Shown here one piece after another: positions 1 to 47,585 of a stretch of 64,000 nt of DNA; the first letter of the stretch is position 1; every line of letters begins with the position of its first letter. This stretch comes from an uncultured Acidobacteriota bacterium (GTDB lineage Bacteria > Acidobacteriota > Thermoanaerobaculia > Multivoradales > UBA5704): contig CAVWNC010000004.1 of NCBI GenBank assembly GCA_963756455.1, forward strand, positions 958,397 through 1,022,396, in the 5' to 3' direction. Under the pieces are notes generated by a model. That model did no database searches and was not told the origin of the DNA. It saw nothing but the letters and a program-made list of their open reading frames with translations. A program made the translations under genes and the position numbers.

Positions 1-22478
<22,478 letters not shown>

Positions 22479-22646
22479 GATCTCGGCCTGGAGCAATTGC
22501 TCAATTTTTATTTCAGCTCCTCCCATTCAGCAGCTCGCCTCCTGTTGCGCCAACCTTATGATACGAATTTGGTTTGTTGTCGGTTTTCTTCTCAGCTGGA
22601 TGATAGGATTACGGCCTGCTGGACCTGCGTTTTCCTGGAGGACACC

Positions 22647-25062
22647 CATGGAGTCGCTCTTCTCCGACATCCGGTTCGGCCTGCGCGGCCTCAAGAGTTC
22701 CCCGTCCACCACCGCCGTCGCTCTCCTCGCCCTCGCCCTGGGAATCGGCGCCAACACCGCCATCTTCAGCGTCGTCAATGGCACTCTGCTCACTCCCCTG
22801 CCCTACCCGGAACCCGAGCGGCTAGTGGTCGTCGCCGCCACCAATCCGCGGTCGGGCCTCCCGCGTTTCAGCCTCTCGCCCCCTGATTTCGACGACTTCC
22901 ATCGCCAGAGCCGGAGCTTTGCGGGCTTGGCCGCCATGACCATGGGGAGCCTCAACCTGACCGGCCGCGGCGAGCCTGAGGTGCTCGACGTGGGGCGGGT
23001 GTCGGCCGACTTCTTCCCCCTGATCGGCCTCCGCCCGCTCCTCGGGCGCGCTTTCCGGCCGGACGAGGACACCCCGGCCTCGCGCCACGTCGTCCTCCTC
23101 TCGCACGGCCTCTGGCAGCGACGGTTCGGGGCGGATCCGAAGGCCGTGGGCCAGAGCCTCCGACTGGACGACGAGAGCTACACGGTGGTGGGGGTGGCGC
23201 CATCCGGCTTCGACTTCCCGCGCAAGCGCGACCTCTGGGTGCCCCTGGCGCTCGAGCCGGCCCAGGCGAAGCGCGGCGCCCACTCGCTTACTTGCGTCGG
23301 GCGGTTGCGCCCGGGTGTCTCGGTGGAGGCGGCGCAGAGCGAGATGAGCGGTATCGCCGCTCGACTGGAGGCGCAATACCCGGACAGCAACCAGGGCTGG
23401 GGAATTGAGGTCTTGCCGCTCCAGCAGGTCTGGGTCGAAAAGATCCGCCCCGCCCTCCTCATCCTCCTCTGGGTGGTGGCGGCGGTCCTCCTGATCGCCT
23501 GCCTGAACGTCGCCAACCTCCTCCTCGCCCGGCTGGCCGCCCGCGGGCGAGAGATCTCGATCCGCACCGCCCTCGGGGCCGGCCGCGGACGCCTCGTCCG
23601 CCAATTGCTGACTGAGAGCATGCTCCTCTCTCTCTTGGGCGGAGCCCTGGGGCTCCTCCTCGCCTCCTGGGGGACACGGGCGCTCCTCGCCTTGAACCCC
23701 GCCGCCCTCCCGCGCGCCGAGGCCATCGGCCTGGACTTACGGGTGCTCGTCTTCACACTCCTGCTCTCGGTCGCCGCCGGGCTCTTCTTCGGCCTGTTCC
23801 CTGCCCTCCACCCCCCCGGGGCGAGCCTTCACGAGGCGCTCAAGGAAGGGGGACGGGCCACGGCGGGCGGCCGCGGCAGCCGTTTCGCCCGCCAATTCCT
23901 CGCCCTGGTCGAAGTGGCGCTCGCTCTCGTGCTCCTGGTCATGGCCGGGGTCCTCCTGCGCAGTTTCTCGCGCCTCGCCGCCGCCGACCCCGGCTTCCGG
24001 CCCGGCGGCGTGCTGACCCTCGACCTCTCTCCTTCGAAGACCCGGTACCCGGACCCGGGCCGGCTCTCCCTGTTCTATCGCGAGCTGCTCGGCCGGGTGT
24101 CGGCGCTCCCCGGTGTCGGGCGGGCGGCGACCCTTTCCCCGCTGCCCCTCGCCGGCAAGACTTTCTTCCGCGGCTTCGCCGTCTTCGGGCGGCCGGTCTC
24201 GCGGTCCAAGCCGGAGAGCGCCACGGTGCGCCGGGCCTCGCCGGAGCTCTTCCGCGTTCTCCGCGTCCCCCTGCTTCGGGGGCGGGTCTTCGAAGAGCGG
24301 GACACGGTGGCCGCGCCCAAAGTGGCGATCGTCAACGCCCAGCTGGCGGGGGCGATGTGGCCGCACGCCGACCCGCTCGGCCAACGTCTGACCTTCGACG
24401 ATCCGGACCTGGCGGGAGCGACCTGGATGACCGTCATCGGAGTGGTGGGAAACGTGCAGCAGCAGGCCCTCTCCGACGATCCGGCCTTCGAGATCTACCA
24501 GCCGCAGCTCCAAGAGCCGGCGGTCGAGACCACCCTGGTCGTGCGTTCGGTGAGAGATCCGTCGGCCCTCGCCGCGCCAATCCGCCGGACGGTCCTCGGG
24601 CTCGACCCAGACCTGCCGGTCTATCACGTGCGCACCCTCTCCTCGGTGGTCGACGACTCGCTCGCCCAGCACCGGCTGAGCACGGCGCTCCTCGGCCTCT
24701 TCGCCGCCCTCGCCCTAGTGCTGGCGGCGGTCGGGGTCTATGGGGTGATCAGCTACTCGGTCGCGCAGCGCACGCATGAGATGGGGATCCGCATGGCACT
24801 GGGGGCGCAACGCCAAGACGTGCTGCGCCTGGTGATCCGGCAGGGGATGGGCCTGGTGGGAACCGGTCTTCTCCTCGGGCTTGCCGGCGCCTTCTTCGCC
24901 ACCCGGGTGCTCGCCGGGCTGCTCTACGGCGTCACCACGACCGACCCCGCGACTTTCGTATCCGTCCCCGGTCTCCTCGCGCTGGTGGCGCTCCTGGCCA
25001 ACTATCTGCCCGCCCGCCGCGCCATGCAGGTCGACCCCCAAGAGGCATTGCGGCAGGAGTAG
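22647..25062 (+). CDS. FtsX/MacB-type 'duplicated orphan permease' (ADOP family), about 805 aa
   Basis: Translation MESLFSDIRFGLRGLKSSPSTTAVALLALALGIGANTAIFSVVNGTLLTPLPYPEPERLVVV... has the typical ADOP N-terminus plus two FtsX-like membrane halves. GGAGG lies 8 nt upstream of ATG 22647. The track's earlier start at 22456 would overlap the NRPS start and is rejected. Confidence 0.8.
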
Positions 25063-25119
25063 GAGATGAGATTTACTCCGCAGATCGAATAGAATCTGCT
25101 TGACAAAGCGGGAGTCACC

Positions 25120-27579
25120 ATGGACCTCTTCCGACAGGATCTCCGCCAAGCCCTGCGGCAGCTGGCGAAAAACCCGGGCTTCGCCCTGATCGCCGTCCTC
25201 ACCCTGGCGCTCGCCCTCGGCGCCAACACGGCGATCTGGAGCGCCGTCGATGGCCTGCTGCTCCGGCCCCTGCCGTTTCCCGAACCCGACCGCCTAGTCC
25301 AGTTGATGCGTCGCTCTCCGCAGGCGACTTCGTCGGACGTCGCCCTCCCCCGGTTCCTCTACTGGCGTAACCACGCTCCGAGCTTCGTCCACCTCGCCAC
25401 CTATGACGAGACAGGCTCGGGATTCAACCTCGCGGGAAACGGCCTTCCCGAGCGCCTCGTGGGCTCGCGGGTGAGCCGCGACTTTCTGAGCGTCCTCGGC
25501 ACCCGTCCGGTCCTCGGGCGCGACTTCCTACCCGAGGAGGACCGTCCCGGCGCCCGGCACGTCGTCCTGCTCTCCCACGGGTTGTGGACCCGGCGCTTCG
25601 GCGCCGACCTCGGTGTCCTCGGCCGCGAGCTGCGGTTGAACGACGAGACCTACACCGTCATCGGCGTGATGCCGGCCGGCTTTCACCTCCCAGCCAAGGC
25701 GGAGCTCTGGACGCCTCTCCAGATCGACCCCGCCAGCCGTGAGAAGGCCAACTACCTGGGGGTGACGGGACGTCTTCGGCGTGGGATCAGTCTCCGCGCG
25801 GCGCGCGCGGAGCTGGCGGTCGTCGACCGCCAGTTCTGCGCCGCCTTCCCGGACCTGGTCTTCAACGCCTGGAAGGGGACCGCCGTCGCCCCGCTCCAGG
25901 AGCACCTTTACGGCCAGCTCCGGACGGCCCTCCTGATCCTCCAGGCGGCCGTCTTCTCGGTCCTTCTGATCGCCTGCGTCAACCTCGCCAACCTTCAATT
26001 GGCCCGCGCCGCGGCACGCCGGCGGGAGATCGCCATCCGCAATGTCCTCGGGGCCGGCGCGGGACGGATCGTGCGCCAGCTGTTGACCGAGAGCCTGCTC
26101 CTCGCGCTCGTCGGCGGCGCCGTCGGCCTGCTCGTCGCGATGATGGCGCTGCCACTCCTTCTCTCCCTCTCGCCCACCCAGGTCGATCTCCTGACGCCGC
26201 TTCGGATCGACGGCAGCGCCCTCGCTTTCACTGCCGGCCTGGCGCTCCTCGCCGGCCTGCTCTTCGGTCTCGCTCCCGCCGTCAGCGCCGCCCGCTTCGA
26301 CCCCCATACCGCGATCCAGGAGAGCGGCAACCGCGCAACCGGGAGCCGCCGCGGCATGCACGTCCGCCGGCTGCTGATGGTGGCCGAGGTAGCCCTGTCG
26401 GTCATCCTCCTTACCGCCGCGGGACTTCTGGTCAAGAGCTTTTCCGGCCTGCTCGGAACCTCTCCGGGATTCGCGCCCGACCACGTGCTGACGGCCACGC
26501 TCTCGCTTCCCGCGGGGCGCTACGGCACGCCCGACGCTCTCGACCGCTTCGACCGCCAGGTGCTCGCCGGGCTCATGGCGATCCCGGCGGTGACCCAGGC
26601 GGCCTTCGCCACCAACCTGCCGCTCGTGGGCGGGCCGCACCTGCCGTTCGCGATCGAGGGGCGCTATCGCAGCAAGGAGAGCGACGAGGGAACCGGTCTC
26701 GCCGAGTACCGGGCGGTGACCGCCGACTACTTTACCGCCCTGCGCATCCCGCTCGTCGCCGGCCGCAGATTCACCGCCACAGATCGCTTGGGCGCTCCCG
26801 GCGTGGCGCTGGTCAACGAAGCCGCGGTCCGCCGCTTTTGGCCTCACGGGGACGCGCTCGGCGCCCGCATCACCTGCGGCCAGCCGTACATGCCCGAGAT
26901 CGCCGACCTGGCGCCGCGAACGATCGTCGGCGTGATCCAGGACGTGCACGAGCTGGGGGTGAACAAAGAGGCGCCGGCGATCGTCTACCTGCCGGTCGCC
27001 CAGATGGCCCCCTCCCTCACCGCCATGCTCACCGCCTTCCAGCCGATCAACCTCGTCGTGCGCACGGCGGGAAAACCGCGCGGGCTCGCTGGCGCCCTCA
27101 ACCGGGCCGTCTGGGCGGTCGATCCCGAGCAACCGGTCACCGATGTGCAATGGATGGACGAGCTGCTCTTCGGCTCGCTGGGCCTCCAACGCTTCGGCGC
27201 CCTCCTTCTGGGCATCCTGTCGCTCATCGCCCTCCTCCTCGCGGCGATAGGAATCTTCGGTGTCCTTTCTTACCTGGTCGAGCAGCGCACCCGCGAGGTC
27301 GGTGTGCGCATGGCCCTCGGCGCCACCAGCGCCGGGGTCCGGCGGATGCTGGTGGGCCAGGGTATGGCCGCCGTTTTCGCCGGGGTGGTTCTCGGCCTGC
27401 TCGGCGCTCTCGCCCTCACCCGGCTCCTCTCCGGCCTGCTCGTCGGTGTCAGCATCTACGACCCCGCTGCCTTCGCCCTGGCCTCGCTGCTCCTCCTCGG
27501 CGTGGCCCTCCTCGCGTGCGGCCTGCCTGCGTACCGGGCGAGCCGAGTCGACCCCGTCGTGGCGCTGCAGCGAGATTGA
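25120..27579 (+). CDS. Second ADOP-family FtsX-type permease, 819 aa; tandem paralog
   Basis: [62 protein letters not shown]... has the same architecture as the upstream gene. No ABC ATPase gene lies adjacent. Confidence 0.8.
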
Positions 27580-27596
27580 GGGAGCCGGGCTCCCTC
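27578..27596. terminator. GC-rich hairpin shared by two convergent genes
   Basis: gagggagcc-g-ggctccctc is a perfect 9-nt inverted repeat. It overlaps the TGA of the plus-strand permease (27577-27579) and the TGA of the minus-strand hydrolase (27595-27597). There is no T-tract. Confidence 0.4.
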
Positions 27597-28956
27597 AGTG
27601 CCCCACGATCCACTCCAGGAGCGGCTGCCAGAAGAGGCGAGGGGCATCGGTCGCATTCCAGATGTCGACGTGGCCGATGTCGAACGTCGGCTGGTCCGGC
27701 GGCAGGAGCCGGACGACGTGGAGGGTCACGTCCCGGCTACCGAGAAGGGTCGTCGAGTAGATCCCAAGATCCCCCACACCGCCAGCGGCACCCAGATAGA
27801 GGACAGGGACGGTGATCTCGGACAGATGGTCGTCCCAGGGGACGTCCTGCTGGTCGCAGGTGAGCGTGTCGCCATCCCTCCCGATCTGGAGGGGCGCATA
27901 GGGCGAGGCCCCTTCCTGGAAATGGAACCAAGCGGCCTCGGGAGTGTAGGAGAGGCCGGTGGGGAAACCTTGGGAGTCGAAAGTGCCACCCACGAAGTGG
28001 TAGAAAGGAGTGAACGATTGCCCCGCCGGGATCAGGGCATAGGTCGCCGAGCCGAACATAAGAGCAGCCTGGCGGTTATTGAAGCCGGGGAGGATCGGAA
28101 CGAAGGTCGGGCCGGTCGGATTGGTCAAGGCGAGATCGCCGAAGAGGTTGATGCCTCCCACCGCACCCTGGTAGGTCCCGGCATCGAGGAGAGCCTGGTT
28201 GGCGGCGACCCGCACGCAAGCGGCCTGGCGGATCATCGGGTCGTCGCTCTTCACGAAGATGTCGACCGGGACAAAACCATTCACCTGACGTAGAGAGCTC
28301 GGGACCTGGGTCTCGGCGTTCAGGTAGGCATAGCCGACCTGTCCACCACGGCTCCAGGCGAGAAGATCCATCTTGCCGAGCCCGTTACCTGTGGCCAGGC
28401 GGACCGAGCGAGCGACCGCGAGGGCAATACCGACGTCGCGTGCGTCGCGCTCGAGGCCCCAGCCCTTGAAGAAGGTGAAGTCCGTCGTCGCCGCCGGCAC
28501 CAGCGTCCAGCCCTGGTCGATCCCCCAGACGTCGATCCCGTGCTCGGCGAGGAAGACCGGGGCGGCGTGCTCGGGGGAGGCCCCGGGAACCGCGAGGTTG
28601 GCGAGAAAGGCGGAATCGAAATCCCAGGTGCCGCCATGGACGAAGAGGATGGCCTGCCGAGCGCGGGCAGGGACGGAGGGTGCCGACTCCCGGACCACCC
28701 GGTGGAGGCCGATCAGGTCGTGTTCGCCGGCGCCGGTCCTCACCTGAAAGCTGTACTCGACAACGTTGCCGGTGATCACCCGCCGGGTCACAGCGGAGGC
28801 GGCGCAACCCCCGGGGACGATGTCGGCAGCGAGCCCTGCAGCCGAGCAGCCGCGGGCCACGACCTGGCGGGTCAACCCAGACCTCTGTACCGAGGCATCC
28901 GCCAGGGTGGGAAGGGACAGGGTACAAGCAAGAAGTAAGTACATGGACTTCCTCAT
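27595..28956 (-). CDS. Secreted alpha/beta-hydrolase (esterase/lipase-like)
   Basis: Start ATG 28954-28956 is preceded by a GAAGGAG RBS. Signal peptide MRKSMYLLLACTLSLPTLADA. LFVHGGTWDF motif and nucleophile-elbow-like LLAWSRGGQVGY (GxSxG). The track ORF begins 14 codons further upstream at an alternative start. Confidence 0.65.
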   Translation of the reverse strand: MRKSMYLLLACTLSLPTLADASVQRSGLTRQVVARGCSAAGLAADIVPGGCAASAVTRRVITGNVVEYSFQVRTGAGEHDLIGLHRVVRESAPSVPARARQAILFVHGGTWDFDSAFLANLAVPGASPEHAAPVFLAEHGIDVWGIDQGWTLVPAATTDFTFFKGWGLERDARDVGIALAVARSVRLATGNGLGKMDLLAWSRGGQVGYAYLNAETQVPSSLRQVNGFVPVDIFVKSDDPMIRQAACVRVAANQALLDAGTYQGAVGGINLFGDLALTNPTGPTFVPILPGFNNRQAALMFGSATYALIPAGQSFTPFYHFVGGTFDSQGFPTGLSYTPEAAWFHFQEGASPYAPLQIGRDGDTLTCDQQDVPWDDHLSEITVPVLYLGAAGGVGDLGIYSTTLLGSRDVTLHVVRLLPPDQPTFDIGHVDIWNATDAPRLFWQPLLEWIVGH

Positions 28957-29665
28957 CGGTTCTCCTTCTCTTCGTTTGAGACCGAGCTGACGCCCCACGC
29001 GACATTCGCGCTGGAATCAGCACAGTCAGGTGATGGATCTCTTGTCACGTCCTGCCCTTCGTTCCCACTGCCTGATTCCACGAGAAGGTCAGCTCGGTTC
29101 GACCCTCGCCAGATTTGCTCTAATCTTCTTTTTTACTATCTATCGTAAGTATAGAACACTGCCTGCGCCATCGGCCACCTTCCCATGCATTTTCGCGGGC
29201 CGCGAACCTCGCCCGGCCCTCCCAACGCCGAATTGTCGAGCTGTAGCCGGTGCGGACCCTGCAACGCTTGGTCGTCGCGCGCAAGCGTTCGTCCACGTGT
29301 CGCAAGCCTGGATAGCGACGCGTAACGCTGGCGCGTTGATAGACTGGAAGCCGTTTCGGACCAGAGAGTTCCCTGCTGAAGGGGCCGCGTCGCGACGGAG
29401 CCGCCGTCCCACGTCTTCCTCAGCCACAACCGACGCTTCGGGATTCGCGTCCACCAGGCCGGGGAGCACCCGGCGAAGCTTCGCGATTCCTGGCCCCCGG
29501 TAAAGTTTCTCGGAAGCGTGAGCGCCTTTATTTAAGGATAGCCCCTTATCGGCGAGTCCAGCCAGCGGGTACGATGTTCCGACGAGGCCAATTTCTGTCG
29601 GCGTACGTGAAGGTAGCCTGCGGCGAACTGGCGCTGGCCGCGCTGCCTACCCCAAAAAACGACCA

Positions 29666-30707
29666 TTAAGGCCGAAAGTGTTCCCGGGGCGACCGCCAAG
29701 GTCCGACCAGGAGATCGTGCGTCCCCTTTTCGACTTGCGCGGGGAAATCGGGGTAGTCGCAGCGGATCTCCTCGGCGACGCAGTTCAAAGTGGAAGCAAG
29801 CCGCCGATCGTGCTGGTCGATGCTTGCGAGTTGCCGGCGGATGCGCCGCCAGCTGATCCGAGATGGAGTCACAGCCGACCAGCATCGGTAGAGGAGGTAA
29901 GACGCACCGTCCCAGAAGAGGGGACGGTTGTGAAACCTGCGCATCAGACGGAGAGAGAGGCAGTACCACAGGGCTATTGCGCAGGTAGTCATGGAACGCT
30001 GGGTCGAGGACGATTCCGTACCGCTTCAGGTCGACGGGGAGAAACGAGAGCTGGGAGCGGTTCTCCGTGGCCAGCAGTCGCCGGGCCTCGGCTCCGTCCC
30101 TCGATGTATAGGCCCTCTGGATCGGCCTCATGTTGAAACGGGCCGTGCCGGTTGGGGTCCGCAGGAGCAAGGTCATCGAGAGGCTGAGGAGACGCTGCAG
30201 GCGCTCCTCGAAGCGCCGGTACTGCACCCCGGAACGGGCGAGTTGAAAGGCTTCAAAGAAGTCGGTCAGGCTGGCGAAGTTGACGAAGCCGGTGTCGTAG
30301 GTAAGGGTGGTGATCCAGGCGAGAAGGGCGCGGTCGGCGCCGAAGGGGATGGGAACGTCCGGCTCCGTCGTCGAGAAGTAGACGGTCAGGTGGGTGTCAG
30401 AGCCGAGTTGGGCTTCGCGGGGGATTGTCGTCAGCGGGCTACGTTTGTAGGGGAAGCCGCAGAAGACCAGAGCCTTGGCGGCGAGGAGGAGGGAGTTGGG
30501 GTCGTCGGGCCGATCGAGAGCAGGCGGGAGGGAACTCTGAACGGATGGGATCGAATCGTGCAGGCGAGTCGCGCCCTCGACGGTGGGTAGGTTCAGCGTC
30601 CCGAGGATGTCCGAGAGGGACGCCGGAGCGCCTGTCCTGCAACTGCTCGGTCCACAGTCGAACCGGGGCTCGCGGGACCTCCCCGTGGCTTTCTGGAGGC
30701 GGCTCAT
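29666..30707 (-). pseudogene. Replication-initiator-like (RepA/RPA-like) paralog, copy 1, frameshifted
   Basis: ORF 29532..30707 matches copy 2 through ...NSPVVLPL, then diverges into an off-frame tail. The conserved C-terminus (RLMRRFHNRPLFWDGASYLLYRCW...) reappears in a different frame as ORF 29666..29992. A 4-nt length difference sits at about 29955-29975 (ggagagagaggcagtacc vs ggagaggcaggacc in copy 2). GAGGAGGG RBS lies before ATG 30707. Confidence 0.6.
29672..30600. repeat. Direct repeat copy 1 (about 930 bp, about 90-95% identical to 32495-33430)
   Basis: Near-identical nucleotide runs, e.g. 29681 ttcccggggcgaccgccaaggtccgaccaggagatc vs 32501 ttcccggggcggccgccaaggtccgaccaggagatc. The encoded protein cores are near-identical over about 230 aa. 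Confidence 0.8.
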
Positions 30708-30716
30708 TGGCCCTCC

Positions 30717-31633
30717 TCACGCGATACGCCATCCTGCCGGCAGAGACTCCAACCCATAGAGCGGATTTGGTTTAGCTGGGCCAGCAGGGTGAAGAGCGAT
30801 TTCGAACTCGTCCCCGTTGGGGATACCTTCTGTTGCACCGGGAGCTCGCCGCTCCAGGCCCGGACCTCGGGGCTCTCCGGGCCGCGGTGGAACGCTCCCT
30901 CGAACGGCACGCCGACCTCGAGAGATTCGGCATCCGACTCGAAGCGCGTCTTCATGCCCTGCATCGTGAGCACTCCCGCCTCTCGACCCGTCTCGGCGAT
31001 CCCGAGAGGCGCTCCCCTCGGCTTCGAAGAGCGTCGACGGACCTCCCGGGGCGCCCACGGCAAGTCGCTCGCGAGGTCTCACGGAGCCGCAGTCCGAGCC
31101 TCCTCGCCTGCACGCTATCGAGAGACGGGCCCAGACCCTGGAGCCTCTCTACCTCCGGGCTCGCATCGGCATCGCCGAATCTCGGTCTCCTGGAGCGGCA
31201 CTTCCTCGCGAGGCCCTCCACCGAAACTCTCGACCACTACACCGTTCTCCTGCGGGATCGCGAGCGTCTCGCTGTGGCGTGTTGGCGGCTCCAGTCGACC
31301 GAGGCCACGCTCCAGGAGCAGCTCCGAGGACTTTCGACGCTCGACGGGAGGCCACACCGAGTCTCCCAAGCCGATATCGATCTGCAGCTTCAGGCGCGCA
31401 GCGGCACAACAAGCGGGCAACATCACGCGCACACCTGCATATTCATCTTCCACCCGGATCGCCTCGATCTGGATCGAGGCGGGATCGAACACCACGGCAT
31501 CGGGCTCGATCTCCGCGGAGCAGATCGTCTCGATGTCCTTCCGAATCGCATCGAAGGAGCCGTCTCCCTTGCGCAGAAGATCCAGATCCCTCGTCGCCCG
31601 ATAGGGCTGATCGGACCACGCCCGAAGGAGCAT
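30717..31633 (-). pseudogene. abiEii: AbiEii/AbiGii-family nucleotidyltransferase toxin-like gene, apparently truncated or frameshifted
   Basis: ORF 31115..31633 begins MLLRAWSDQPYRATRDLDLLRKGDGS..., which contains an NTase-fold G/S...DxD-like motif. It seems to lack the usual 30-40 N-terminal residues and stops after 172 aa. The downstream sequence continues only in other frames (ORFs 30717..31082 and 30704..31063). A 165-nt gap separates it from abiEi. Confidence 0.4.
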
Positions 31634-31798
31634 GGCACCCTTGAGAACAAAGCGTTCTCATGCGCGGATACCCCGAGTCGATGGAGAAATCTCTCGAAAC
31701 AGAAACTCGTGAGGAGCCTTTGGAAGTCGTCTCCGGTCTGCCGGACTTGATTGAGGAGGAGTGCCGAGACGGAGGCCGGCAGGTTTCGCTTCTCCCCT

Positions 31799-32407
31799 TC
31801 ATTGAATCGCGTCCAGGTAGGGCTGCAGCACCCGCGTCACCCGGCAGATCTGGGCGAAGCGGGCGAGGTCCGTGCCTCCGCCGCGGTGGTGACGACTGAA
31901 GTCGCGGAGGGCTTCGACGGCCACGTCGATGCCGATCTTATGGCGGTACTTGAAGCAGTCGGCGACCGTTTTGGCCGCCGAGTACACGCGGACATCGACC
32001 CCTTCGATCCGGTGTGTCTCAATGCCTTCGGTGAGAGCGGCTCCGGAGAAACGGGTGACTCGAAGGCGCGGATAGTCGAGCCGAGGCTTGCGGGCCTTTT
32101 CGGGCAGGGAGACCCAGACCTCGGCCGGAAGCTGGGTCGTCAGATCGTGGAACCGCAGTGCGGTGAGCAGGCAGATCACCCCGTTCGGGACCCGCTTTGC
32201 AACCTGGACGAGCGCGTGTTCGGTGGTGTGGGGGTGATCGCTGGCAGCATAGATCCCCCGAGCCTGACGCTCCACCTCGCCCTTGCGGACAAGCTGGTAC
32301 AGCCGCTGGCGCGGGATGTTGCGCGCCTCAAGGTCGGCCGCGCGCACCACCCCGAGTCGGTGGATTACTTGGAGCGCCCGGCGTTGGTCAACCGTCAGCA
32401 TGACCAC
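31799..32407 (-). CDS. abiEi: AbiEi-family antitoxin / transcriptional regulator (type IV TA system)
   Basis: MLTVDQRRALQVIHRLGVVRAADLEARNIPRQRLYQLVRKGEVERQARGIYAASDHP... gives an N-terminal wHTH. The C-terminal domain (...ICLLTALRFHDLTTQLPAEVWVSLPEKAR...RVTRFSG...) is typical of AbiEi/COG5340 proteins. The gene lies upstream of the NTase-like ORF on the same strand. Confidence 0.6.
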   Translation of the reverse strand: MVMLTVDQRRALQVIHRLGVVRAADLEARNIPRQRLYQLVRKGEVERQARGIYAASDHPHTTEHALVQVAKRVPNGVICLLTALRFHDLTTQLPAEVWVSLPEKARKPRLDYPRLRVTRFSGAALTEGIETHRIEGVDVRVYSAAKTVADCFKYRHKIGIDVAVEALRDFSRHHRGGGTDLARFAQICRVTRVLQPYLDAIQ

Positions 32408-32491
32408 AAGAATACAATTTGTCGGGAGTTGTACACAAGTCCCGACGTTTTGGGTGATACCTGGGCTGCGAGGAGTACCGAAAACCGCTCC

Positions 32492-33538
32492 TCACGGCCG
32501 GAGGTGTTCCCGGGGCGGCCGCCAAGGTCCGACCAGGAGATCATGGGTGCCCTTCTCGACTTGTGCGGGAAAGTCCGGGTAGTCGCTCCGAATCTCCTCG
32601 GCGACGCAGTTCAAGGTGGAAGCAAGCCGCCGATCGTGCTGATCAATGCTCGCGAGCTGCCGGCGGATACGCCGCCAGCTGATCCGGGACGGGGTCACGG
32701 CCGACCAGCACCGGTAGAGGAGGTACGACGCGCCGTCCCAAAAGAGAGGGCGGTTGTGGAACCTGCGCATCAGACGGAGAGGCAGGACCACAGGGCTGTT
32801 GCGCAGGTAGTCATGGAACGCCGGGTCGAGAACGATTCCGTACCGCTGCAGGTCGACAGGGAGAAAGGATAGCTGGGAACGGTTCTCCGTGGCCAGCATT
32901 CGCCGGGCCTCAGCTCCATCCCTCGGTGTATAGGCCCTCTGGATCGGCCTCATGTTAAGACGGGCCGTGCCGGTCGGGGTCCGCAGGAGCAAGGTCATCG
33001 AGAGGCTGAGGAGACGCTGCAGGCGCTCCTCGAAGCGTCGGTACTGCACTCCGGAACGGGCGAGTTGGAAGGCCTCGAAGAAATCGGTCAGGCTGGCGAA
33101 GTTGACGAAGCCGGTATCGTAGGTGAGGGTGGTGATCCATGCGAGCAGGGCTCGATCGGCACCGAAGGGGATGGGGACGTCCGGCTCCGTCGTCGAGAAG
33201 TAGACGGTCAGGTGGGTGTCGGAGCCGAGTTGGGCCTCGCGGGGGATCGTCGTCAGCGGGCTACGTTTGTAGGGGAAGCCGCAGAAGACGAGCGCTTTGG
33301 CGGCGAGGAGAAGGGAGTTGGGCTCCTCGGGACGGTCTGCCAGGACCGCCAGAGAGGCTGGAACGGATGGAGAAGCGGATAAGGACGAAAGGTCTGCGGC
33401 GGTCTGCTGGCCTGCCCCCTCCGCAATTGGTAGGTCGATGGTGCCGAGGATGTCCGAGAGGGACGCCGGGGAGCCTGGCCTACGGCCGTCGAGCCGCGGT
33501 TTGGCGGCTCTTTTCGTGGGAGTTTGGTGGCCGTTCAT
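32492..33538 (-). CDS. Replication-initiator-like (RepA/RPA-like) protein, copy 2, intact (349 aa from ATG 33538)
   Basis: GGGAGG RBS lies 5 nt before ATG 33536-33538. The conserved core FSTTEPDVPIPFGADRALLAWITTLTYDTGFVNFASLTDFFEAFQLARSGVQYRRFEERLQRLLSLSMTL loosely resembles the FSxSTKP / SGG-Y-LE-AL-RL-GTS pattern of plasmid 'replication initiator protein A' families. The family assignment comes from memory of the motif pattern and not from a search. Confidence 0.45.
   Translation of the reverse strand: MNGHQTPTKRAAKPRLDGRRPGSPASLSDILGTIDLPIAEGAGQQTAADLSSLSASPSVPASLAVLADRPEEPNSLLLAAKALVFCGFPYKRSPLTTIPREAQLGSDTHLTVYFSTTEPDVPIPFGADRALLAWITTLTYDTGFVNFASLTDFFEAFQLARSGVQYRRFEERLQRLLSLSMTLLLRTPTGTARLNMRPIQRAYTPRDGAEARRMLATENRSQLSFLPVDLQRYGIVLDPAFHDYLRNSPVVLPLRLMRRFHNRPLFWDGASYLLYRCWSAVTPSRISWRRIRRQLASIDQHDRRLASTLNCVAEEIRSDYPDFPAQVEKGTHDLLVGPWRPPREHLRP
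32495..33430. repeat. Direct repeat copy 2
   Basis: See copy 1. Both are in the same orientation and flank the abiE pair. Confidence 0.8.
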
Positions 33539-33572
33539 CGGGCCTCCCGGCGAGCATGCAGGCTGAGAATCC

Positions 33573-33591
33573 GCGGCGAAAGCGTGTACAA
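33573..33591. promoter_or_regulatory. Palindrome GTGTAC-N7-GTACAC in the promoter region of repA-like copy 2
   Basis: Perfect 6-bp inverted repeat 35-55 nt upstream of start codon 33538 on the coding strand. Two cttcgccc direct repeats lie nearby at 33601-33629. This is a possible operator or iteron. No equivalent is seen upstream of copy 1. Confidence 0.3.
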
Positions 33592-33694
33592 TTTCGGTAC
33601 ACTGCCGCCCAATCTTCGCCCATTTCTGGCAAACTTCGCCCTCCCTCCTTTGAGGCATAAGCCAATAAAAATCAATGGGTTATGGTGTTGTGAA

Positions 33695-33766
33695 GGGTTG
33701 TGGCGAATTGGCCTTGACAGACTTTTAATCCGCGGGTCCAGAGTTCGAGTCTCTGACGGCCCACCA
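33695..33766 (+). other. tRNA-like 3' fragment (T-arm, acceptor 3' strand, discriminator, CCA). A full cloverleaf could not be folded.
   Basis: ...cgcgggtc CAGAG TTCGAGT CTCTG ACGGCCC A CCA gives a perfect 5-bp T-stem, a TTCGAGT loop, a 7-nt acceptor 3' strand and a templated CCA. Upstream gggttgt (33695-33701) can pair with the acceptor using 2 G-U pairs. The 35 nt in between are too short for D and anticodon arms. The fragment sits in a GC-poor region at the right flank of the island. Confidence 0.35.
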
Positions 33767-34077
33767 TTTAGAATCAATCCGTTAGGGGTCACCGCGGAAC
33801 CCCTCTCGCCCCATTTCGTACGCTTTTCGTACAGATGGCATCTTGCGCGTCTGCTGGCAGTTTCTCGATTTCTGCCATGGCTTGCTCAAGCAATACGGTC
33901 ATGTCGGATGTCTTCTAAACGTCCATTCTATCTCGCTTAGGCCGAGGCTCCGACGACGTTGCGGAAGCCGGCCACAGCCCGGAGCCCTTTCACAGTGCGG
34001 CAACGAAAGGTACAGGTGCTGTTAGGTGCCATGTTGAGAGGGATACTGGCTCGAGAAACGGGAGAGGAGACGGTGCC

Positions 34078-34524
34078 ATGCCGACGACGGACCGACCGCT
34101 CGCAGCCGAGGAGGTGATCCGGATCCTGGAGCTCGTGCCCCATCCGGAAGGGGGCTTCTACCGCGAGACCTTCCGCGACCGACCGCAGGAGGGCGGGCGG
34201 GGAGCCTCGACCGCCATTTACTACCTGCTCCGGGCCGGGGAGATTTCCTCCTGGCATCGGGTGACCGATGCCGCCGAGATCTGGCACCAATACGCCGGGG
34301 GAGCCCTGGATCTCACCCTCTCGGCCGACGGCCGGGAGACCTCGGTCCACCGCCTCGGCACCGATCTGGGAGCAGGCGAGCGCCCGCAGGTCACGATCCC
34401 GGCCGGCGTCTGGCAGACCGCCCGGTGTCTCGGCGACTGGACCCTCGTGGGCTGCACGGTCGCCCCTGCCTTCGAATTCAGAAGTTTCGAGATGGCTCCG
34501 GCCGGCTGGGCCCCCGCCGAATAG
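34078..34524 (+). CDS. Cupin-fold protein, DUF985-like
   Basis: MPTTDRPLAAEEVIRILELVPHPEGGFYRETFRD...IYYLL...SSWHRV... matches the DUF985/cupin signature (LxPHPEGGxYRET). A GGAGAGGAG RBS lies upstream. Confidence 0.7.
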   Translation: MPTTDRPLAAEEVIRILELVPHPEGGFYRETFRDRPQEGGRGASTAIYYLLRAGEISSWHRVTDAAEIWHQYAGGALDLTLSADGRETSVHRLGTDLGAGERPQVTIPAGVWQTARCLGDWTLVGCTVAPAFEFRSFEMAPAGWAPAE

Positions 34525-34804: not shown

Positions 34805-35017
34805 TTAGGGACAGACGGCCGGCGGGCAGGGGCTGCAGATGGAGGTGCGAGTGCTGCAGGCACCGATGGTCAGGGCGCCGTTTACGCCCTTCAGCTGGTC
34901 GCCGGTGACGTCGATCGACGCCGCCGGATGGGCCGGCAGGGCGGCGCGCTCGGCGTCGCTCAGGCTGAGGTAATAGTCGAGATCACGGAAGGCGCGCGAC
35001 ACATGGAGCTTCTTCAT
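34805..35017 (-). CDS. lanA: Class II lanthipeptide precursor peptide candidate (70 aa)
   Basis: MKKLHVSRAFRDLDYYLSLSDAERAALPAHPAASIDVTGDQLKGVNGALTIGACSTRTSICSPCPPAVCP. It has an acidic, helix-prone leader ending ...QLKGVNGA. The C-terminal 23 residues carry 4 Cys and 6 Ser/Thr. A GGAGAG RBS precedes the start. ATG 35015-35017 overlaps the LanM TGA 35014-35016 (ATGA). Confidence 0.7.
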   Translation of the reverse strand: MKKLHVSRAFRDLDYYLSLSDAERAALPAHPAASIDVTGDQLKGVNGALTIGACSTRTSICSPCPPAVCP

Positions 35018-38000
35018 CGTTCTCTCCTGCTGCGAGCCGGCGCGAGGGAATCCCACGCCGGAGGCCTAAGGCTGGGCGGCGGCTCCAGGCGGAGCACCGA
35101 GGGCACACGGCCCGGAGCGGCGAGGCGCAGCAGGCCGTAGCCGACGCCCGCCAGGCCGACCATCAGGCCCGGCGGCTCGGCGGCGATGGGCAGGCCGAGC
35201 CGCCAACCGCGTTCGCCACGTTCTCCACGATCGCCACATTCTCCGATATCGGCCAGGATGCCGCCGGCGAGACGGCCGGCACGCGCCGCGAGCGCCGGAT
35301 CGTCCAGGATCGCGGCGGCATGTTGCACCACTTCGAGATTGCCGATATCGCCATGGCACAGGCAGTGGCCGCGGCCGAAGCCACCGGCGAGGGTCGTGGC
35401 GACGGCGGTCGCCGCGTCCTCGCGCAGCTCGCTGTCGGCATGGCGCAGGCCGTCGAGGCGGGAGAGGGCGATGCCTGGAGCGCCGTGGCACCAGGCGTTG
35501 AGGTAACGCGCCCCTCCGCCTGCGGCCTCGCCGCCGGCCCGGAGGTCGGGCCAGTTGCGGGCGGTTGGCGAGTAGAGCGAGCGTTCGTAGGCGACCGCCG
35601 CCAGGGCGGTGGCATGGTAGCGCGGCTCGCCGCCGCACGCCTCGGCGAGCTGCCAAAGCGCCCACGAGATGCCGGCGGCGCCGTGGGAGAAGCCGGCGAG
35701 CGGCGGCCCCGGTGCCACCACCGACGCCCAGCCGAGCCCCTGCGGCATGGCGACCGCCCGCGCGAGCAGGCGCTCGCCGCAACGCACCGCTAGATCGAGG
35801 AGGCGCGGCGACGGTCGCAGGCGGTGCAGGCCGAGCAGGCAGACCAGGCAGCCGGCGACGCCGCCGACCAGGTCGCAGTGCTCGTCCGCGTCGATCGCCG
35901 GGCCGAGGGAGTGGGCGATGCGCTCGGCTTCGTCGAGCAGGGCATCGTCCTGCCACAGCGCCCCTAAATGGGTGAGGGCGAAAATCGCGCCGCCCCAGCC
36001 GGAATAGGCGCCGACGGCAGTCAGCAGTTGGGAGCCGGCGGCCACCTGGCTGCGCAGGGTGACGGTCGCGGCCCGCGCCAGGGCGGTGAGCTGCGGTTCG
36101 CCGGCGATCTCTCCCAGGAAGGCGAGGAAGAGGGCGATCCCTGGCACGCCGAGGTGGAGGTCGGCGCCGGCGGGGACGACCCGCCAGCGGCGGCTGTCCT
36201 GCGGCAGGTCGGGGCCGAACCAGGTGGCCGCCGCGCCGCTCTGGAAAGCGAGCGCCGTCAGGCTGCGCCCCACCGCCATCGCCGCCTCCAGCAGCTCCGC
36301 CGCGCTGGGCGGACCCGAGGTCTCCTGCAACTCGTACTCCGGCGACGGCGCGGGCCGGCCGGTCGCCGCCAGGAGGGCGCTCCGCGCCAGCCACGTCTGG
36401 CGTTCGATCTCCGCCTCGTCGAAGCTGTCGAGACGCGCCGCGACCCGCGCCATGCCGCTTTCGTCCAGGAAGTCCGCGATGCGCTCGCCGTCGCTCGCCA
36501 GCAGGTCGCGCGATCCCGGCCAGGTGGTGAAGAACGGAATGTCGCCGCCTCGCAGGTCGCGATGCTCGGCCGGTACCAGGCGCTCGAAGGCGGGCCGCTC
36601 CGGAACCACCGTCCAAAGCAGGTCGAGCAGGCGCTCCCGTTCCAGCGCATCGCCCAGCACGTAAGGATGTTGGGCGTCGTTGTAGAGGGCGGCGTAGGCG
36701 GCGGTCTGGCGCAGCAGCACGCGCACCGGGGCCGTGGCGAACGGGGCGAGCGGCCCGGCCGGCGCGGCGAGCTCGGCGCGGTGCGCCGCCAGCAGCCGCG
36801 CCATGCGGACGAATCCCTCGATCAACGCCTCGATGTAGCCGGCGAGCGGTACCGCGGCATCGTTCAGGGTCGGCTGGTGCTCGCCTCCCACTGGCATTTC
36901 GGTCTGCCGCTTGAGGAAGCGCATACGGTCGGTACCGGTGTCGGCCAGGCCGAGCACGGTCTGCGGCACCAGCTGGCCGGCGGTGGCGGTCAGGCCGCTC
37001 AAGTCGATGCCGGCGCCACCGCCGGCTTCACCGCCCCAGCCTTCATCGGGAAGGAAGCCGACGCGCATCACCGTGTCGGGCAGCTCGGCCGCCGCCGCGG
37101 TGCCGCCGAAACGCTGGTCGAGGGGATGGAACAGCGCCTCCAGGTCGAGCAGCATGGGATGCTCGCCCACCGCCATCAGGTTCTCGTGGTGCATATCGGT
37201 GGCCGAGAGCACGAACAGGAGCGCCAGAAAGCCGCCCTGGCGCTGATAGAAGCGCTCCACCTCCGCCGCGCTGGCGCAGGGGGCCGGCGCCACGGCCTCC
37301 ACCCAGCCGTGGTCCCCGCAGTCGACCACCTTCAGCTGCCTGAAGGCGGGGGTGAAGCCGCGCTCCACGCACCAGCCCAGCAGCTCCTGGAAAGCCGCCT
37401 CGACAGCCATCGGCCGCGGCTTGTAGATGAGCTGCAGCCCCGAGGCGAAGCGCAAGCGCGCCACCGAGCGGCCGCCGCGGTGCGCGTCGCCCAGCCCACT
37501 CGCGATCTCCACCACCTCCCCAGGCTCGCCCGCCGGAGAGAAGGCGGCGCGCCAACGGTCGTCCGCCGCCGCCAGGTGGCCGCAGATCTCCAGGCCGAAG
37601 TCGGCCCAGCGGCCTGCCGTCTCGACCACTTGGCGGGCGAGCACCGGATAGCGGTGCAGGATCTCCAGGGCGCCGGCCGGCTGACGCAGGTATGCAATGA
37701 AGCTGTGGAAACGCTCCTCGGGGGTGGCGCCGGCGAGCCTGCCGTCGAGGCCGGCGAGATGCAGCTCGAGCACGAGGGTGCGTCCGAGCAGCAGCTGGAT
37801 ATGCGAGGTGAGACCGCGACTCAGCATGGCGGCGACCGCCGCGGGCGTGAAACGCGGCGTTGCCGAAGCGGGCGAAGCGGCGGCCAGCGCCTCGAGACCG
37901 GCGAGCAGGCGTGAGAAGGCGCGGTCCAGCACCGGCCGCGCAGCCTCCAGGAAGGGCGCCTGACCGCTCGCCGCCAGCACCTCCGGCGGCAGCGGGAAAC

Positions 38001-38343
38001 GTTCCGGCGGCGGCGCTCCGGCGTAGGCCGCCGCCAGCTCCTGCAACCAAGGCGGCGAGGCATTGAGGGCGGTGAGGGCGGCGGCCAGCTCGGCGGGGGC
38101 CTCGCCGAGGAGGCTGCGCAGGCGCGCCGGGGTCACCCCTTCGACGGCCAGACGGCGGGCGAAGAAACCGTCGGCAGCGAACGGCTCCTGGGCGCGCCAG
38201 CGCGCGAACCGCCGCCCGGCGCGCTGCCGCGCCGCCGCGGCGCGCGGCGGGGGCAGCGTGCGGTGGCAGGCGGCGCGTTCGGCCAGCCCGAGCGCCGCGA
38301 GCCAGTTCGGCGATGCGAGGAGCGCTGCGACGTCGGGGGCCAC
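35014..38343 (-). CDS. lanM: Class II lanthipeptide synthetase LanM (N-terminal dehydratase plus C-terminal LanC-like cyclase)
   Basis: LanM signatures LQLIYKPRPMAVE and SATDMHHENLMAVGEHPMLLDLEALF. Cyclase zinc-ligand motifs NAWCHGAPGIALS and HCLCHGDIGNLEV. The track ORF runs to 38397 (MRCARLSHRG...). An internal GTG at 38341-38343 lies 3 nt downstream of a perfect GGAAGGAGG and is the more likely start. Confidence 0.85.
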   Translation of the reverse strand: MAPDVAALLASPNWLAALGLAERAACHRTLPPPRAAAARQRAGRRFARWRAQEPFAADGFFARRLAVEGVTPARLRSLLGEAPAELAAALTALNASPPWLQELAAAYAGAPPPERFPLPPEVLAASGQAPFLEAARPVLDRAFSRLLAGLEALAAASPASATPRFTPAAVAAMLSRGLTSHIQLLLGRTLVLELHLAGLDGRLAGATPEERFHSFIAYLRQPAGALEILHRYPVLARQVVETAGRWADFGLEICGHLAAADDRWRAAFSPAGEPGEVVEIASGLGDAHRGGRSVARLRFASGLQLIYKPRPMAVEAAFQELLGWCVERGFTPAFRQLKVVDCGDHGWVEAVAPAPCASAAEVERFYQRQGGFLALLFVLSATDMHHENLMAVGEHPMLLDLEALFHPLDQRFGGTAAAAELPDTVMRVGFLPDEGWGGEAGGGAGIDLSGLTATAGQLVPQTVLGLADTGTDRMRFLKRQTEMPVGGEHQPTLNDAAVPLAGYIEALIEGFVRMARLLAAHRAELAAPAGPLAPFATAPVRVLLRQTAAYAALYNDAQHPYVLGDALERERLLDLLWTVVPERPAFERLVPAEHRDLRGGDIPFFTTWPGSRDLLASDGERIADFLDESGMARVAARLDSFDEAEIERQTWLARSALLAATGRPAPSPEYELQETSGPPSAAELLEAAMAVGRSLTALAFQSGAAATWFGPDLPQDSRRWRVVPAGADLHLGVPGIALFLAFLGEIAGEPQLTALARAATVTLRSQVAAGSQLLTAVGAYSGWGGAIFALTHLGALWQDDALLDEAERIAHSLGPAIDADEHCDLVGGVAGCLVCLLGLHRLRPSPRLLDLAVRCGERLLARAVAMPQGLGWASVVAPGPPLAGFSHGAAGISWALWQLAEACGGEPRYHATALAAVAYERSLYSPTARNWPDLRAGGEAAGGGARYLNAWCHGAPGIALSRLDGLRHADSELREDAATAVATTLAGGFGRGHCLCHGDIGNLEVVQHAAAILDDPALAARAGRLAGGILADIGECGDRGERGERGWRLGLPIAAEPPGLMVGLAGVGYGLLRLAAPGRVPSVLRLEPPPSLRPPAWDSLAPARSRRER

Positions 38344-38523
38344 GATCCTCCTTCCCAAGGGGAATGTGCCGCGGTGGGACAGCCGGGCACATCGCATACT
38401 CTGTTAATTGAAGATTATTTTCAATAGAGCCATTGCAGGATATCGGGAGCTGAGGACGCCGATCGGCAGCCCGCGGCCACAGACCCTCCGATCCTGCCAT
38501 ACTGTGGTCCAAGGGGGCACTCT

Positions 38524-46306: not shown

Positions 46307-47585
46307 TTCCCTGCCGGTCGGCCTCGCCGGCGATCCGGCGGATGTATTCGGCCTGCCAGCGGAGCCCCCCGTCGCTGGCGACCGCCGGGGTCTGCCGGAA
46401 GGCTTGCGCTTCGTAGGCGGGGACGGCGGGGATCTCCAGGTCGGCGAGCGGCCGGCGCTCCCGCCGCCGGGCGAGCGCCGCCTCGACGCTCGGCCGCAGC
46501 ACCTGGGCCTTGAGCCGCTCCCGCTCGGCCTCCTGGGCCTGGAGCTCCGGCATCACCGTGCGGGCGAAGAGGCCGAGAGACTCACAGAGATGGTCGTGCC
46601 GGGTCTTTCCTACCGGCTGCAGGAGGACCACCTGGTCGACCCCGGCTTCGGCGAAGCCGAGCAGATAGTCGCGCAGCTGCCGCGGTGTGCCGATGCCGAG
46701 CTGGCGTCCGGGGAGGGCCGGCCGCACCTTCTGGAACTCTTCCCAGAGGTCGCTCCGGCCCGGCACGTGGGTGCCGTGGCCGTAGTAGTACGAGAGGGCG
46801 AACTGGAAGAACTGGAAGCCCTCGATGGCGCGCTCGCGCGCGACGCCCTCGTCCTCGTGGCAGAAAAAGGGGGTCACCATCGCTACGTTGGGGTTGACCG
46901 CGTAGCCGATCGGCGAGCACTCGCGGCGGAAGATCGTGTAGTACTCCTCGGTCCAGCGCTTCGCCTCGTCGGGGTCGATGAAGGCGAAGGACAGCGCTCC
47001 CAGGCCCAGCCGGGCGGCGAGCCGGATGGATTCGCGCCGCGTGCATGCCATCCAGAGGGGCGGGTGCGGCTTCTGGAGCGGCTTGGGGACGACGTTGCGG
47101 CAGGGCATCGAGACGTGCCGGCCGGCCGCGCCGCCGTAGGGCTCCATCACCATCATGTCGGTGATCTGCTCCAGCGCCTCGCGCCACATCTCGTGGCGCT
47201 CCTGCCGGTCGATGCCGAAGGCTTCGAGCTCGACCCGCGAGGCGGATTCGCCGGTCCCGAATTCGACCCTGCCGTTCGACACCAGGTCGAGCGTCGCGAT
47301 GCGCTCGGCGGCCCGGGCCGGGTGGTTGTAGCGGGGCGGCATCAGCATGACCCCGTGGCCGAGGCGGATCGTCCGGGTGCGCTGGGAGGCGGCGGCCAGG
47401 AACACCTCCGGCGCCGACGAGTGCGAGTACTCCTCGAGGAAGTGGTGCTCGGCGAGCCAGACGTGGTCGATGCCGAGGCGGTCGGCGAGCTCGATCAGGT
47501 CGAGCGCCTCGGTGAACAGGCGATGCTCGCCGCCTGCGCTCCACGGCCTTGGCAGTTGGTGCTCGCAGAAGAGCCCGAGCTTCAT
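46281..47585 (-). CDS. Luciferase-like (LLM-class) flavin-dependent oxidoreductase
   Basis: MKLGLFCEHQLPRPW...IDHVWLAEHHFLEEYSHSSAPEVFLAAASQRTRTIRLGHGV... is typical of LLM monooxygenases. Start ATG 47583-47585 overlaps the PKS-B TGA 47582-47584 (ATGA). Confidence 0.8.
   Translation of the reverse strand: MKLGLFCEHQLPRPWSAGGEHRLFTEALDLIELADRLGIDHVWLAEHHFLEEYSHSSAPEVFLAAASQRTRTIRLGHGVMLMPPRYNHPARAAERIATLDLVSNGRVEFGTGESASRVELEAFGIDRQERHEMWREALEQITDMMVMEPYGGAAGRHVSMPCRNVVPKPLQKPHPPLWMACTRRESIRLAARLGLGALSFAFIDPDEAKRWTEEYYTIFRRECSPIGYAVNPNVAMVTPFFCHEDEGVARERAIEGFQFFQFALSYYYGHGTHVPGRSDLWEEFQKVRPALPGRQLGIGTPRQLRDYLLGFAEAGVDQVVLLQPVGKTRHDHLCESLGLFARTVMPELQAQEAERERLKAQVLRPSVEAALARRRERRPLADLEIPAVPAYEAQAFRQTPAVASDGGLRWQAEYIRRIAGEADRQGITPREPAE

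Follow-up and report, generated by a model that had tools for sequence, protein, structure and literature searches.

A likely relic of plasmid-like integrative elements with a tRNA-Lys(UUU) attachment site among the biosynthetic gene clusters of an uncultured Thermoanaerobaculia bacterium

The 64,000-nt stretch of DNA analyzed in this work (contig CAVWNC010000004.1, positions 958,397 to 1,022,396, from an uncultured Acidobacteriota bacterium of the class Thermoanaerobaculia; hereafter the window) contains, at 28999-34080, a region with two rep genes for RepA-like replication initiators, an abiE toxin-antitoxin pair, and a fragment of a tRNA gene. In our view, plasmid-like integrative elements with the 3' end of tRNA-Lys(UUU) as their attachment (att) site likely gave rise to this region, which would be their immobile relic, probably that of two elements accreted in tandem. 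An earlier reading made from the letters alone, the sequence-only reading, had described the region as a plasmid- or ICE-derived island in decay (ICE, integrative and conjugative element). The plasmid-derived part of this description agrees with the RepA homology, the att junction, the integrase found in relatives, and the pseudogenes, whereas nothing supports the ICE part, as no transfer genes were seen. The object itself is an ordinary kind of genomic island, now decayed.

One firm junction could be marked in the region, namely the att core at 33722-33766 on the plus strand, which is identical to the final 45 nt of tRNA-Lys(UUU), a part that begins in the anticodon loop and ends with the CCA. 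The two bases preceding it (GA) are also common to tRNA-Lys genes, and the shared part is therefore best given as the last 45-47 nt. An exact search with 33722-33766 retrieved 45 metagenome contigs (loci outside the window are cited below by L numbers), and on 34 of them the match falls within a canonical tRNA-Lys(UUU) gene of 76 nt, whose 3' part it forms, running from the anticodon loop CTTTTAA to the CCA, and whose 5' half reads GGGCCGTTAGCTCAGTTGGTAGAGCAGCGGA. In the window, the 5' half of the tRNA is replaced by a non-tRNA arm ending in ...GGTGTTGTGAAGGGTTGTGGCGAATTGGCCTTGACAGA. In a shuffle control, a 32-mer of the tRNA piece was matched in 0 of 100 shuffles. The DNA on the other side of the fusion, comprising the upstream region of rep copy 2 and the element-side arm of the junction (33539-33721), is conserved in L003, L004, L005, L008, L009, and L010. 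This arm carries GTTGTG at 33687-33692 and 33697-33702, 10 nt apart, as well as an inverted repeat (GTGTAC..GTACAC), and the same arm with two GTTGTGG-type repeats spaced by ~10-11 nt was found in L003, L004, L008, L009, L036, L041, and L055. With the 5' side of the core fused to element DNA, the arrangement is that of a classical att junction, and, judged from its sequence, it bears the signature of a tyrosine-integrase att site with a predicted crossover at the anticodon loop. The geometry of the junction places the element on the 5' side of the tRNA piece, that is, to its left, with the rep genes included. The sequence-only reading had recognized a tRNA-like T-arm, acceptor, and CCA segment at this end; the segment is indeed a genuine part of tRNA-Lys(UUU), but its limits have to be redrawn, since it reaches further 5' than the T-arm, to the anticodon loop.

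Other contigs have another arm, with TGTTGG repeats, fused to this core at the identical point in the anticodon loop. The presence of two arm classes on one core indicates that several element types use the tRNA-Lys(UUU) att site. The TGTTGG-arm class, in which the repeats have a spacing of ~11 nt, was seen in L028, L034, L037, L042, L043, L058, and L061; remnants of the same integrase family adjoin the junction in L028, and genes for nonribosomal peptide synthetases (NRPS) are found nearby in L037. Two other tRNA candidates were considered and rejected. The first was a decayed whole tRNA gene at the junction, for which Rfam gave a tRNA match at 33695-33763 (25.8 bits, with a gathering threshold of 29) and where ARAGORN called no tRNA at the 33722-33766 piece. 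The 5' half of this match is the conserved element arm, and the same 5' arm is present at loci where ARAGORN finds no tRNA, while genuine genes read GGGCCGTTAGCTCAGTTGGTAGAGCAGCGGA at that place; moreover, the 7/7 acceptor pairing behind the Rfam match stems from the GTTGTG repeat. The second was a 96-nt tRNA-Gly(GCC) called by ARAGORN at 4358-4453 (plus strand) as a partner att site, which lies inside a giant NRPS open reading frame (ORF) and is almost certainly a false positive.

The identity of the proteins encoded by the rep genes required remote methods. Copy 2 (32492-33538, minus strand) is intact, with a GGAGG ribosome-binding site ahead of its ATG, and encodes a 348-aa homologue of RepA-like initiators with two winged-helix domains, as judged from its predicted fold and from profile homology. 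Neither paralogue had a Pfam match even at E = 10, and none was found in NCBIfam, PHROGs, or PADLOC; a sequence-profile search of the PDB returned noise only. Only 46 relatives came up in a word-indexed search; every one is a hypothetical protein, and one is named as Thermoanaerobaculia. An AlphaFold2 model built from the family alignment had a mean predicted local distance difference test score (pLDDT) of 73.7, with the greater part of the core (residues ~70-345) scoring ~80-95. The top Foldseek matches of this model were domains 2-3 of RctB (E 1.7e-6), and the modeled fold consists of two tandem winged helices (WH1-WH2), as in the core of RctB, in pi, and in RepE, and corresponds to that of initiators of the iteron type. 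When PLSDB was searched by tblastn, the matches were to the gene for "replication protein RepA" on three plasmids of Granulicella tundricola (27-29% identity, E to 5e-19), of which the one on pACIX905 sits in a parA-x-repA module. Comparison with the pACIX905 RepA by hhalign gave 99.9% probability (E 2e-34) with ~260 homologous residues, and comparison with the RepA of Ralstonia pRMAN01, which itself matches RepA_C (PF04796) at 6e-37 and whose gene adjoins parA and parB, gave 97.6% probability (E 2.7e-12). An exhaustive profile search yielded 930 cluster representatives, and RepA_C was found in 14 and RPA in 13 among 50 distant relatives, so that the link to these Pfam families is transitive only. 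Taken together, the profiles and the model place Rep as an uncatalogued branch of the RepA_C/RPA superfamily, which lies outside the coverage of Pfam and NCBIfam. The label "RepA-like" given in the sequence-only reading is thus well founded, and Rep is homologous to plasmid RepA rather than a member of an unrelated conserved chromosomal family. By sequence comparison, its closest characterized relatives are RepA genes of acidobacterial plasmids. For instance, the RepA of G. tundricola MP5ACTX9 (WP_013573289.1, pACIX905) is homologous to Rep over ~260 residues and has the two-winged-helix fold in common with it. In contrast to the Granulicella genes, however, the window Rep is only 27-29% identical to them and falls below the Pfam and NCBIfam thresholds, and the window rep genes are chromosomal, multi-copy, and without parA/parB partners. 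No earlier description of the Rep family or of the element came up in searches of the literature.

The second rep gene of the region, copy 1 (29666-30707, minus strand), is a RepA-like pseudogene. A 4-nt insertion, CTCT, at ~29956-29959 shifts its reading frame and splits it into the ORFs 29532-30707 and 29666-29992, and a terminator-like hairpin with a T-run (29660-29674, minus strand) follows directly after its stop codon. The region had been said to hold two same-orientation paralogues, one of them frameshifted, and both genes are on the minus strand with copy 1 broken by the insertion. The copies are 90-95% identical across ~840 nt, while their first ~300 nt and their upstream regions are unrelated. 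Although the genes are clearly paralogues, as had been proposed, their description as duplicated was less apt: because the unit of copy 1 has a different 5' junction and a different N-terminus, the two copies are probably better read as a tandem accretion of two related elements than as a local duplication. The 5' junction of copy 1 is marked by an 85-nt conserved sequence, here called the B segment (30742-30828), which contains a hairpin and a palindrome of the GAGTTCGAA type. Five other loci likewise have the B segment 5' of rep copies (L004 14706-14783, L007 3621-3694, L010 9866-9952, L011 5907-5985, and L015 9578-9655), and in two of these the last ~60 codons of the integrase described below come after it. 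A different hairpin takes the place of this one in L007. The inner portion of the B segment is similar to the element-side arm at the tRNA-Lys junction. The B segment was also considered as a tRNA or transfer-messenger RNA (tmRNA) fragment, which was rejected, as there was no Rfam match even with 241 nt at E = 10.

No recombinase was detected in the window by tblastn with the integrase of this family, and none of the ORFs scanned against Pfam (abiEi, the fragment of abiEii, the two rep copies, and six more) contained an integrase or transposase domain, in agreement with what the sequence-only reading had stated. The integrase is found in relatives. The genes immediately preceding rep in L002, L005, and L018 encode tyrosine-recombinase-like proteins of 400-445 aa, and the stop codon of the L002 gene overlaps the rep start. 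The family integrase matches Phage_int_SAM_3 (3.5e-7, above the cut-off in L018), Phage_int_M, and, weakly, the Phage_integrase catalytic domain (1.4e-3), and the R / HxxR / H / Y motifs are legible in its sequence. In L002, the integrase gene is preceded by a 3' fragment of another tRNA or tmRNA, which gives the order att fragment - int - rep. This locus (1583-5457) is the most complete relative, with the tRNA/tmRNA fragment, the tyrosine-integrase-like gene, rep, and a second rep paralogue; beyond the second rep, genes for TauD, OTCase, and an aminotransferase are located.

Prophages and ICEs often carry tyrosine integrases that target tRNA genes, as well as AbiE pairs, which could be taken to suggest that the region is the remnant of a prophage or an ICE instead of a plasmid-type element. 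We regard this as very improbable. Rep had no relatives in 50,697 phage records, in IMG/VR, or in PHROG, and the att core was likewise not found in the phage records and IMG/VR. Furthermore, genes for a capsid, a terminase, a relaxase, or type IV secretion were absent from the window region and from the conserved neighborhoods of the related loci, and neither an FtsK-like transfer gene nor an excisionase was seen.

The homologies and the anatomy of the loci suggest how plasmid-like elements of this kind might have worked. A divergent tyrosine integrase would recombine the attP site of the element with the last ~47 nt of the tRNA gene, with the crossover at the anticodon loop; the adjoining RepA-type initiator, with its two winged-helix domains, would replicate the excised circle; and cargo such as the AbiE toxin-antitoxin pair could stabilize the element or defend the host. 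In the window, only the distal junction would survive, consisting of the element arm, the 3' core of the tRNA, and the tRNA-like downstream flank. The array would be made up of two units. The first would combine rep copy 2 and the AbiE pair with the att junction; the second, for which accretion in tandem is the most likely origin, would be composed of rep copy 1 and the B segment. The array would be unable to excise, given that its integrase, the intact tRNA gene with the proximal att site, the toxin, and rep copy 1 are all either missing or damaged. The closest functional analogues are actinobacterial integrative plasmids such as pSAM2 and SLP1, also classed as actinobacterial integrative and conjugative elements (AICE). 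These elements encode a tyrosine integrase beside a replication gene, their att site corresponds to a tRNA gene from the anticodon loop to its 3' end, and they can accumulate and decay in the chromosome. The position of int beside rep and the use of a tRNA 3' part as the att site are thus in common. In contrast to AICE, the host here belongs to the Acidobacteriota, class Thermoanaerobaculia, Rep is of the two-winged-helix RepA_C/RPA type and not RepSA or RepAM, and neither an FtsK-like transfer gene nor an excisionase accompanies the genes, with the element being known in incomplete form and its excision and replication being deduced.

The decay of the region is also apparent in the AbiE pair. 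Both of its genes are located between the two rep copies. The abiEi gene (31799-32407, minus strand), which encodes an antitoxin and transcriptional regulator, is full length (202 aa; PADLOC 2.4e-80 over positions 4-197 of the 198-position profile; Pfam AbiEi_4 5e-10), and by these matches its product is an AbiEi antitoxin with the winged helix-turn-helix at the N-terminus. The abiEii toxin gene is a pseudogene (31115-31798, minus strand), in which the N-terminal ~50 codons are in another frame and the middle third is the ORF 31115-31633. This in-frame ORF spans only positions 58-161 of the 299-position PADLOC profile (21-127 of 238 in Pfam), and no C-terminal half was detectable. As in type IV toxin-antitoxin systems of the AbiE kind, abiEi lies upstream of abiEii on one strand and AbiEi is full length, but here the toxin gene is frameshifted and without a recognizable C-terminal half, and consequently the pair would not be a working system. 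The proposed AbiEi/AbiEii pair with a truncated toxin was thereby confirmed by PADLOC and Pfam. None of 20 related rep loci contains abiE, which indicates that the pair is variable cargo outside the conserved module and that gene content is not the same in all relatives.

A number of observations weigh against the proposed relic of tRNA-Lys-integrating, RepA-encoding elements. The window Rep protein is below every Pfam and NCBIfam threshold, including those of PF04796 and PF10134, and the domain matches of the integrase are mostly under the Pfam cut-offs. No array of iterons was found beside rep, where there are only short two-copy repeats (GTTGTG twice); a TGTACCGAA motif is present in two copies in some rep relatives. 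No other copy of the 32-mer of the att core was found in the window at up to 3 mismatches, and there is no intact tRNA-Lys gene in the window, including the 33.7 kb to the left of the junction. No contig in any collection carries both an intact tRNA-Lys gene and the fragment, and no complete element was seen. In addition, no empty site was found in relatives, and no locus joins tRNA-Lys to the cupin gene that follows the junction. The left limit of the region, 28999, is set solely by the GC content and the end of a gene. Purifying selection on integrase-less rep genes, which is described below, fits a protein in use better than junk. Lastly, the outer flank of the junction could be an arm of attP rather than native chromosome.

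This outer flank (33767-33825, plus strand) consists of a spacer and a hairpin with its stem at 33784-33789 / 33799-33804, and it resembles the DNA downstream of genuine tRNA-Lys genes. The ~60 nt past the CCA are common to L003, L004, L008, L010, and L055. The flank is either the native terminator of the tRNA gene, which we favor, or the other arm of attP. In the latter case, the tRNA-Lys piece and both of its flanks would together be an intact attP, lying in a plasmid that entered in another way (for example, by homologous recombination via rep or NRPS sequences) or at the head-to-tail joint of tandem elements, and the DNA to the right, with the cupin gene and a lanthipeptide cluster, would belong to the element as well. 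The ~60-nt flank is indeed common to loci of 4 genomes in which the genes beyond it differ, L004a and L008, located 25 kb apart on one contig, have ~115 nt of outer flank in common, and the partner att site was found nowhere. However, genuine tRNA-Lys genes elsewhere have a like downstream spacer and hairpin (TT.AAA.CAA..ACTTAG followed by a stem), which fits a native terminator, and the outer flank is different in L009 and L005. An intact attP at this position therefore appears quite unlikely to us.

The rep genes are repeated within genomes. At least seven rep loci are present in the metagenome-assembled genome (MAG) SMAG_U10817 and three in MFD01213.bin.1.234. The host genome of the window has at least four rep copies, two of which lie outside the window on the same contig. 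Of these, P0195 (342 aa) is unbroken and its N-terminus is of yet another, third type, and P0044 is a degraded, frameshifted chimera of rep and abiEi, indicating that the rep-abiE unit was present at least twice in the host genome. Tandem rep copies were found in L002, L004, L005, and L010. Approximately half of all rep copies are frameshifted or truncated, among them copy 1 of the window and those in L003, L004b/c, L008, L010, and L011. The conserved unit of DNA extends from ~60 nt beyond the CCA of the tRNA piece to exactly the rep stop codon, a length of ~1.33 kb. Intact rep copies, including integrase-less paralogues within one genome, had dN/dS values of 0.09-0.28, which are compatible with recent selfish activity and also with domestication. 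The neighborhood is of a different kind in the distant loci L013, L016, L017, and L020 (33-38% identity), where a large surface protein with DUF11 repeats precedes each rep, and one of these proteins has an IPTL-CTERM sorting signal.

Domestication would mean that the RepA-like genes are chromosomal DNA-binding proteins, acting as regulators or organizers of biosynthetic clusters or as plasmid-incompatibility "immunity" loci, with the att piece as an old scar. Consistent with such a role, intact copies without an integrase, including the within-genome paralogues, are under purifying selection, the same att-rep junction is stably kept across at least 4 genomes, and rep genes are often found close to genes for NRPS or polyketide synthases (PKS). 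NRPS/PKS genes were located within 10 kb in 11 of 15 loci of the close rep family and in 0 of 34 genuine tRNA-Lys loci, and in the retrieved flanks of 3 of 11 loci with a tRNA-Lys fragment, a comparison that is to be read as a lead and not as a result, as these genomes are very rich in NRPS genes and the control loci are often short. The adjacency may thus be partly background. In contrast, about half of the rep copies are broken, the copy number and position of rep differ between genomes, the closest characterized relatives are plasmid replication genes, and purifying selection is equally expected for the genes of recently active selfish elements. On balance, we regard domestication as unlikely and prefer the decayed, plasmid-derived relic.

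With this relic, the low-GC gap between the biosynthetic clusters is explained as debris of mobile elements. What the region adds to this ordinary kind of island is an uncatalogued RepA subfamily together with its tRNA-Lys att site, in a class of bacteria that is mostly uncultured and has received little study. The subfamily and the att site could help in the annotation of Thermoanaerobaculia genomes, and, if the replicon works, it could be a starting point for genetic tools for Acidobacteriota. The recurrence of rep modules beside NRPS/PKS genes offers a lead on the movement of such clusters, a movement that is not demonstrated. A broader and rather doubtful proposal is that the att-rep modules are end-markers of lineage-specific, tRNA-Lys-integrating, RepA-encoding elements that carry or seed NRPS/PKS and lanthipeptide clusters in Thermoanaerobaculia, in which case repeated integration would have made the window part of an array of biosynthetic islands, or else that integrase-less RepA proteins were co-opted by the host as cluster-tied DNA-binding factors.

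In its composition, the region at 28999-34080 has a GC content of 0.630, compared with 0.711 to the left of it and 0.721 to the right of it within the window. The flanks 28999-29530 and 33600-34080, which had been singled out as AT-richer than the surroundings, have GC contents of 0.609 and 0.545, respectively, confirming this observation, and the latter flank includes the lowest-GC 500-nt window of the entire 64 kb. Further low-GC patches occur at 38.4-41 kb, and low GC by itself is thus not peculiar to 28999-34080. Left of rep copy 1, the sequence at 28999-29659 is AT-richer (GC 0.61); this stretch, which is defined by its composition, contains no convincing gene and no att site and has no similarity to any related locus; the ORF 29030-29503 within it matched nothing in Pfam.

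Most of the window is biosynthetic DNA. On its left side, one NRPS ORF uninterrupted by stop codons (3-22526, minus strand; at least 7508 aa) runs off the window end and contains six sets of adenylation-domain and peptidyl carrier protein motifs; the long plus-strand ORFs across 3-22526 had no Pfam match and are probably spurious. Between the NRPS gene and the island are two tandem MacB_PCD/FtsX permeases of 819-868 aa (22456-27579, plus strand) and a secreted protein of 467 aa without a family match (27595-28998, minus strand). Similar MacB_PCD/FtsX permeases adjoin rep in L003, L005, L006, L007, L008, L010, and L055. A Cupin_5 gene (34078-34524) is located between the att junction and a class II lanthipeptide pair (34805-38397, minus strand), which lies directly to the right of the island. 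The lanthipeptide precursor belongs to the mersacidin/lichenicidin family (TIGR03898, 1.3e-11), and the adjoining LanM has DUF4135 and LANC_like domains. Further to the right, the stretch 43154-63936 contains genes for a WS/DGAT-domain protein of 1050 aa and for a luciferase-like monooxygenase, along with two more megasynthase ORFs on the minus strand (47582-57823 and 57088-63936).

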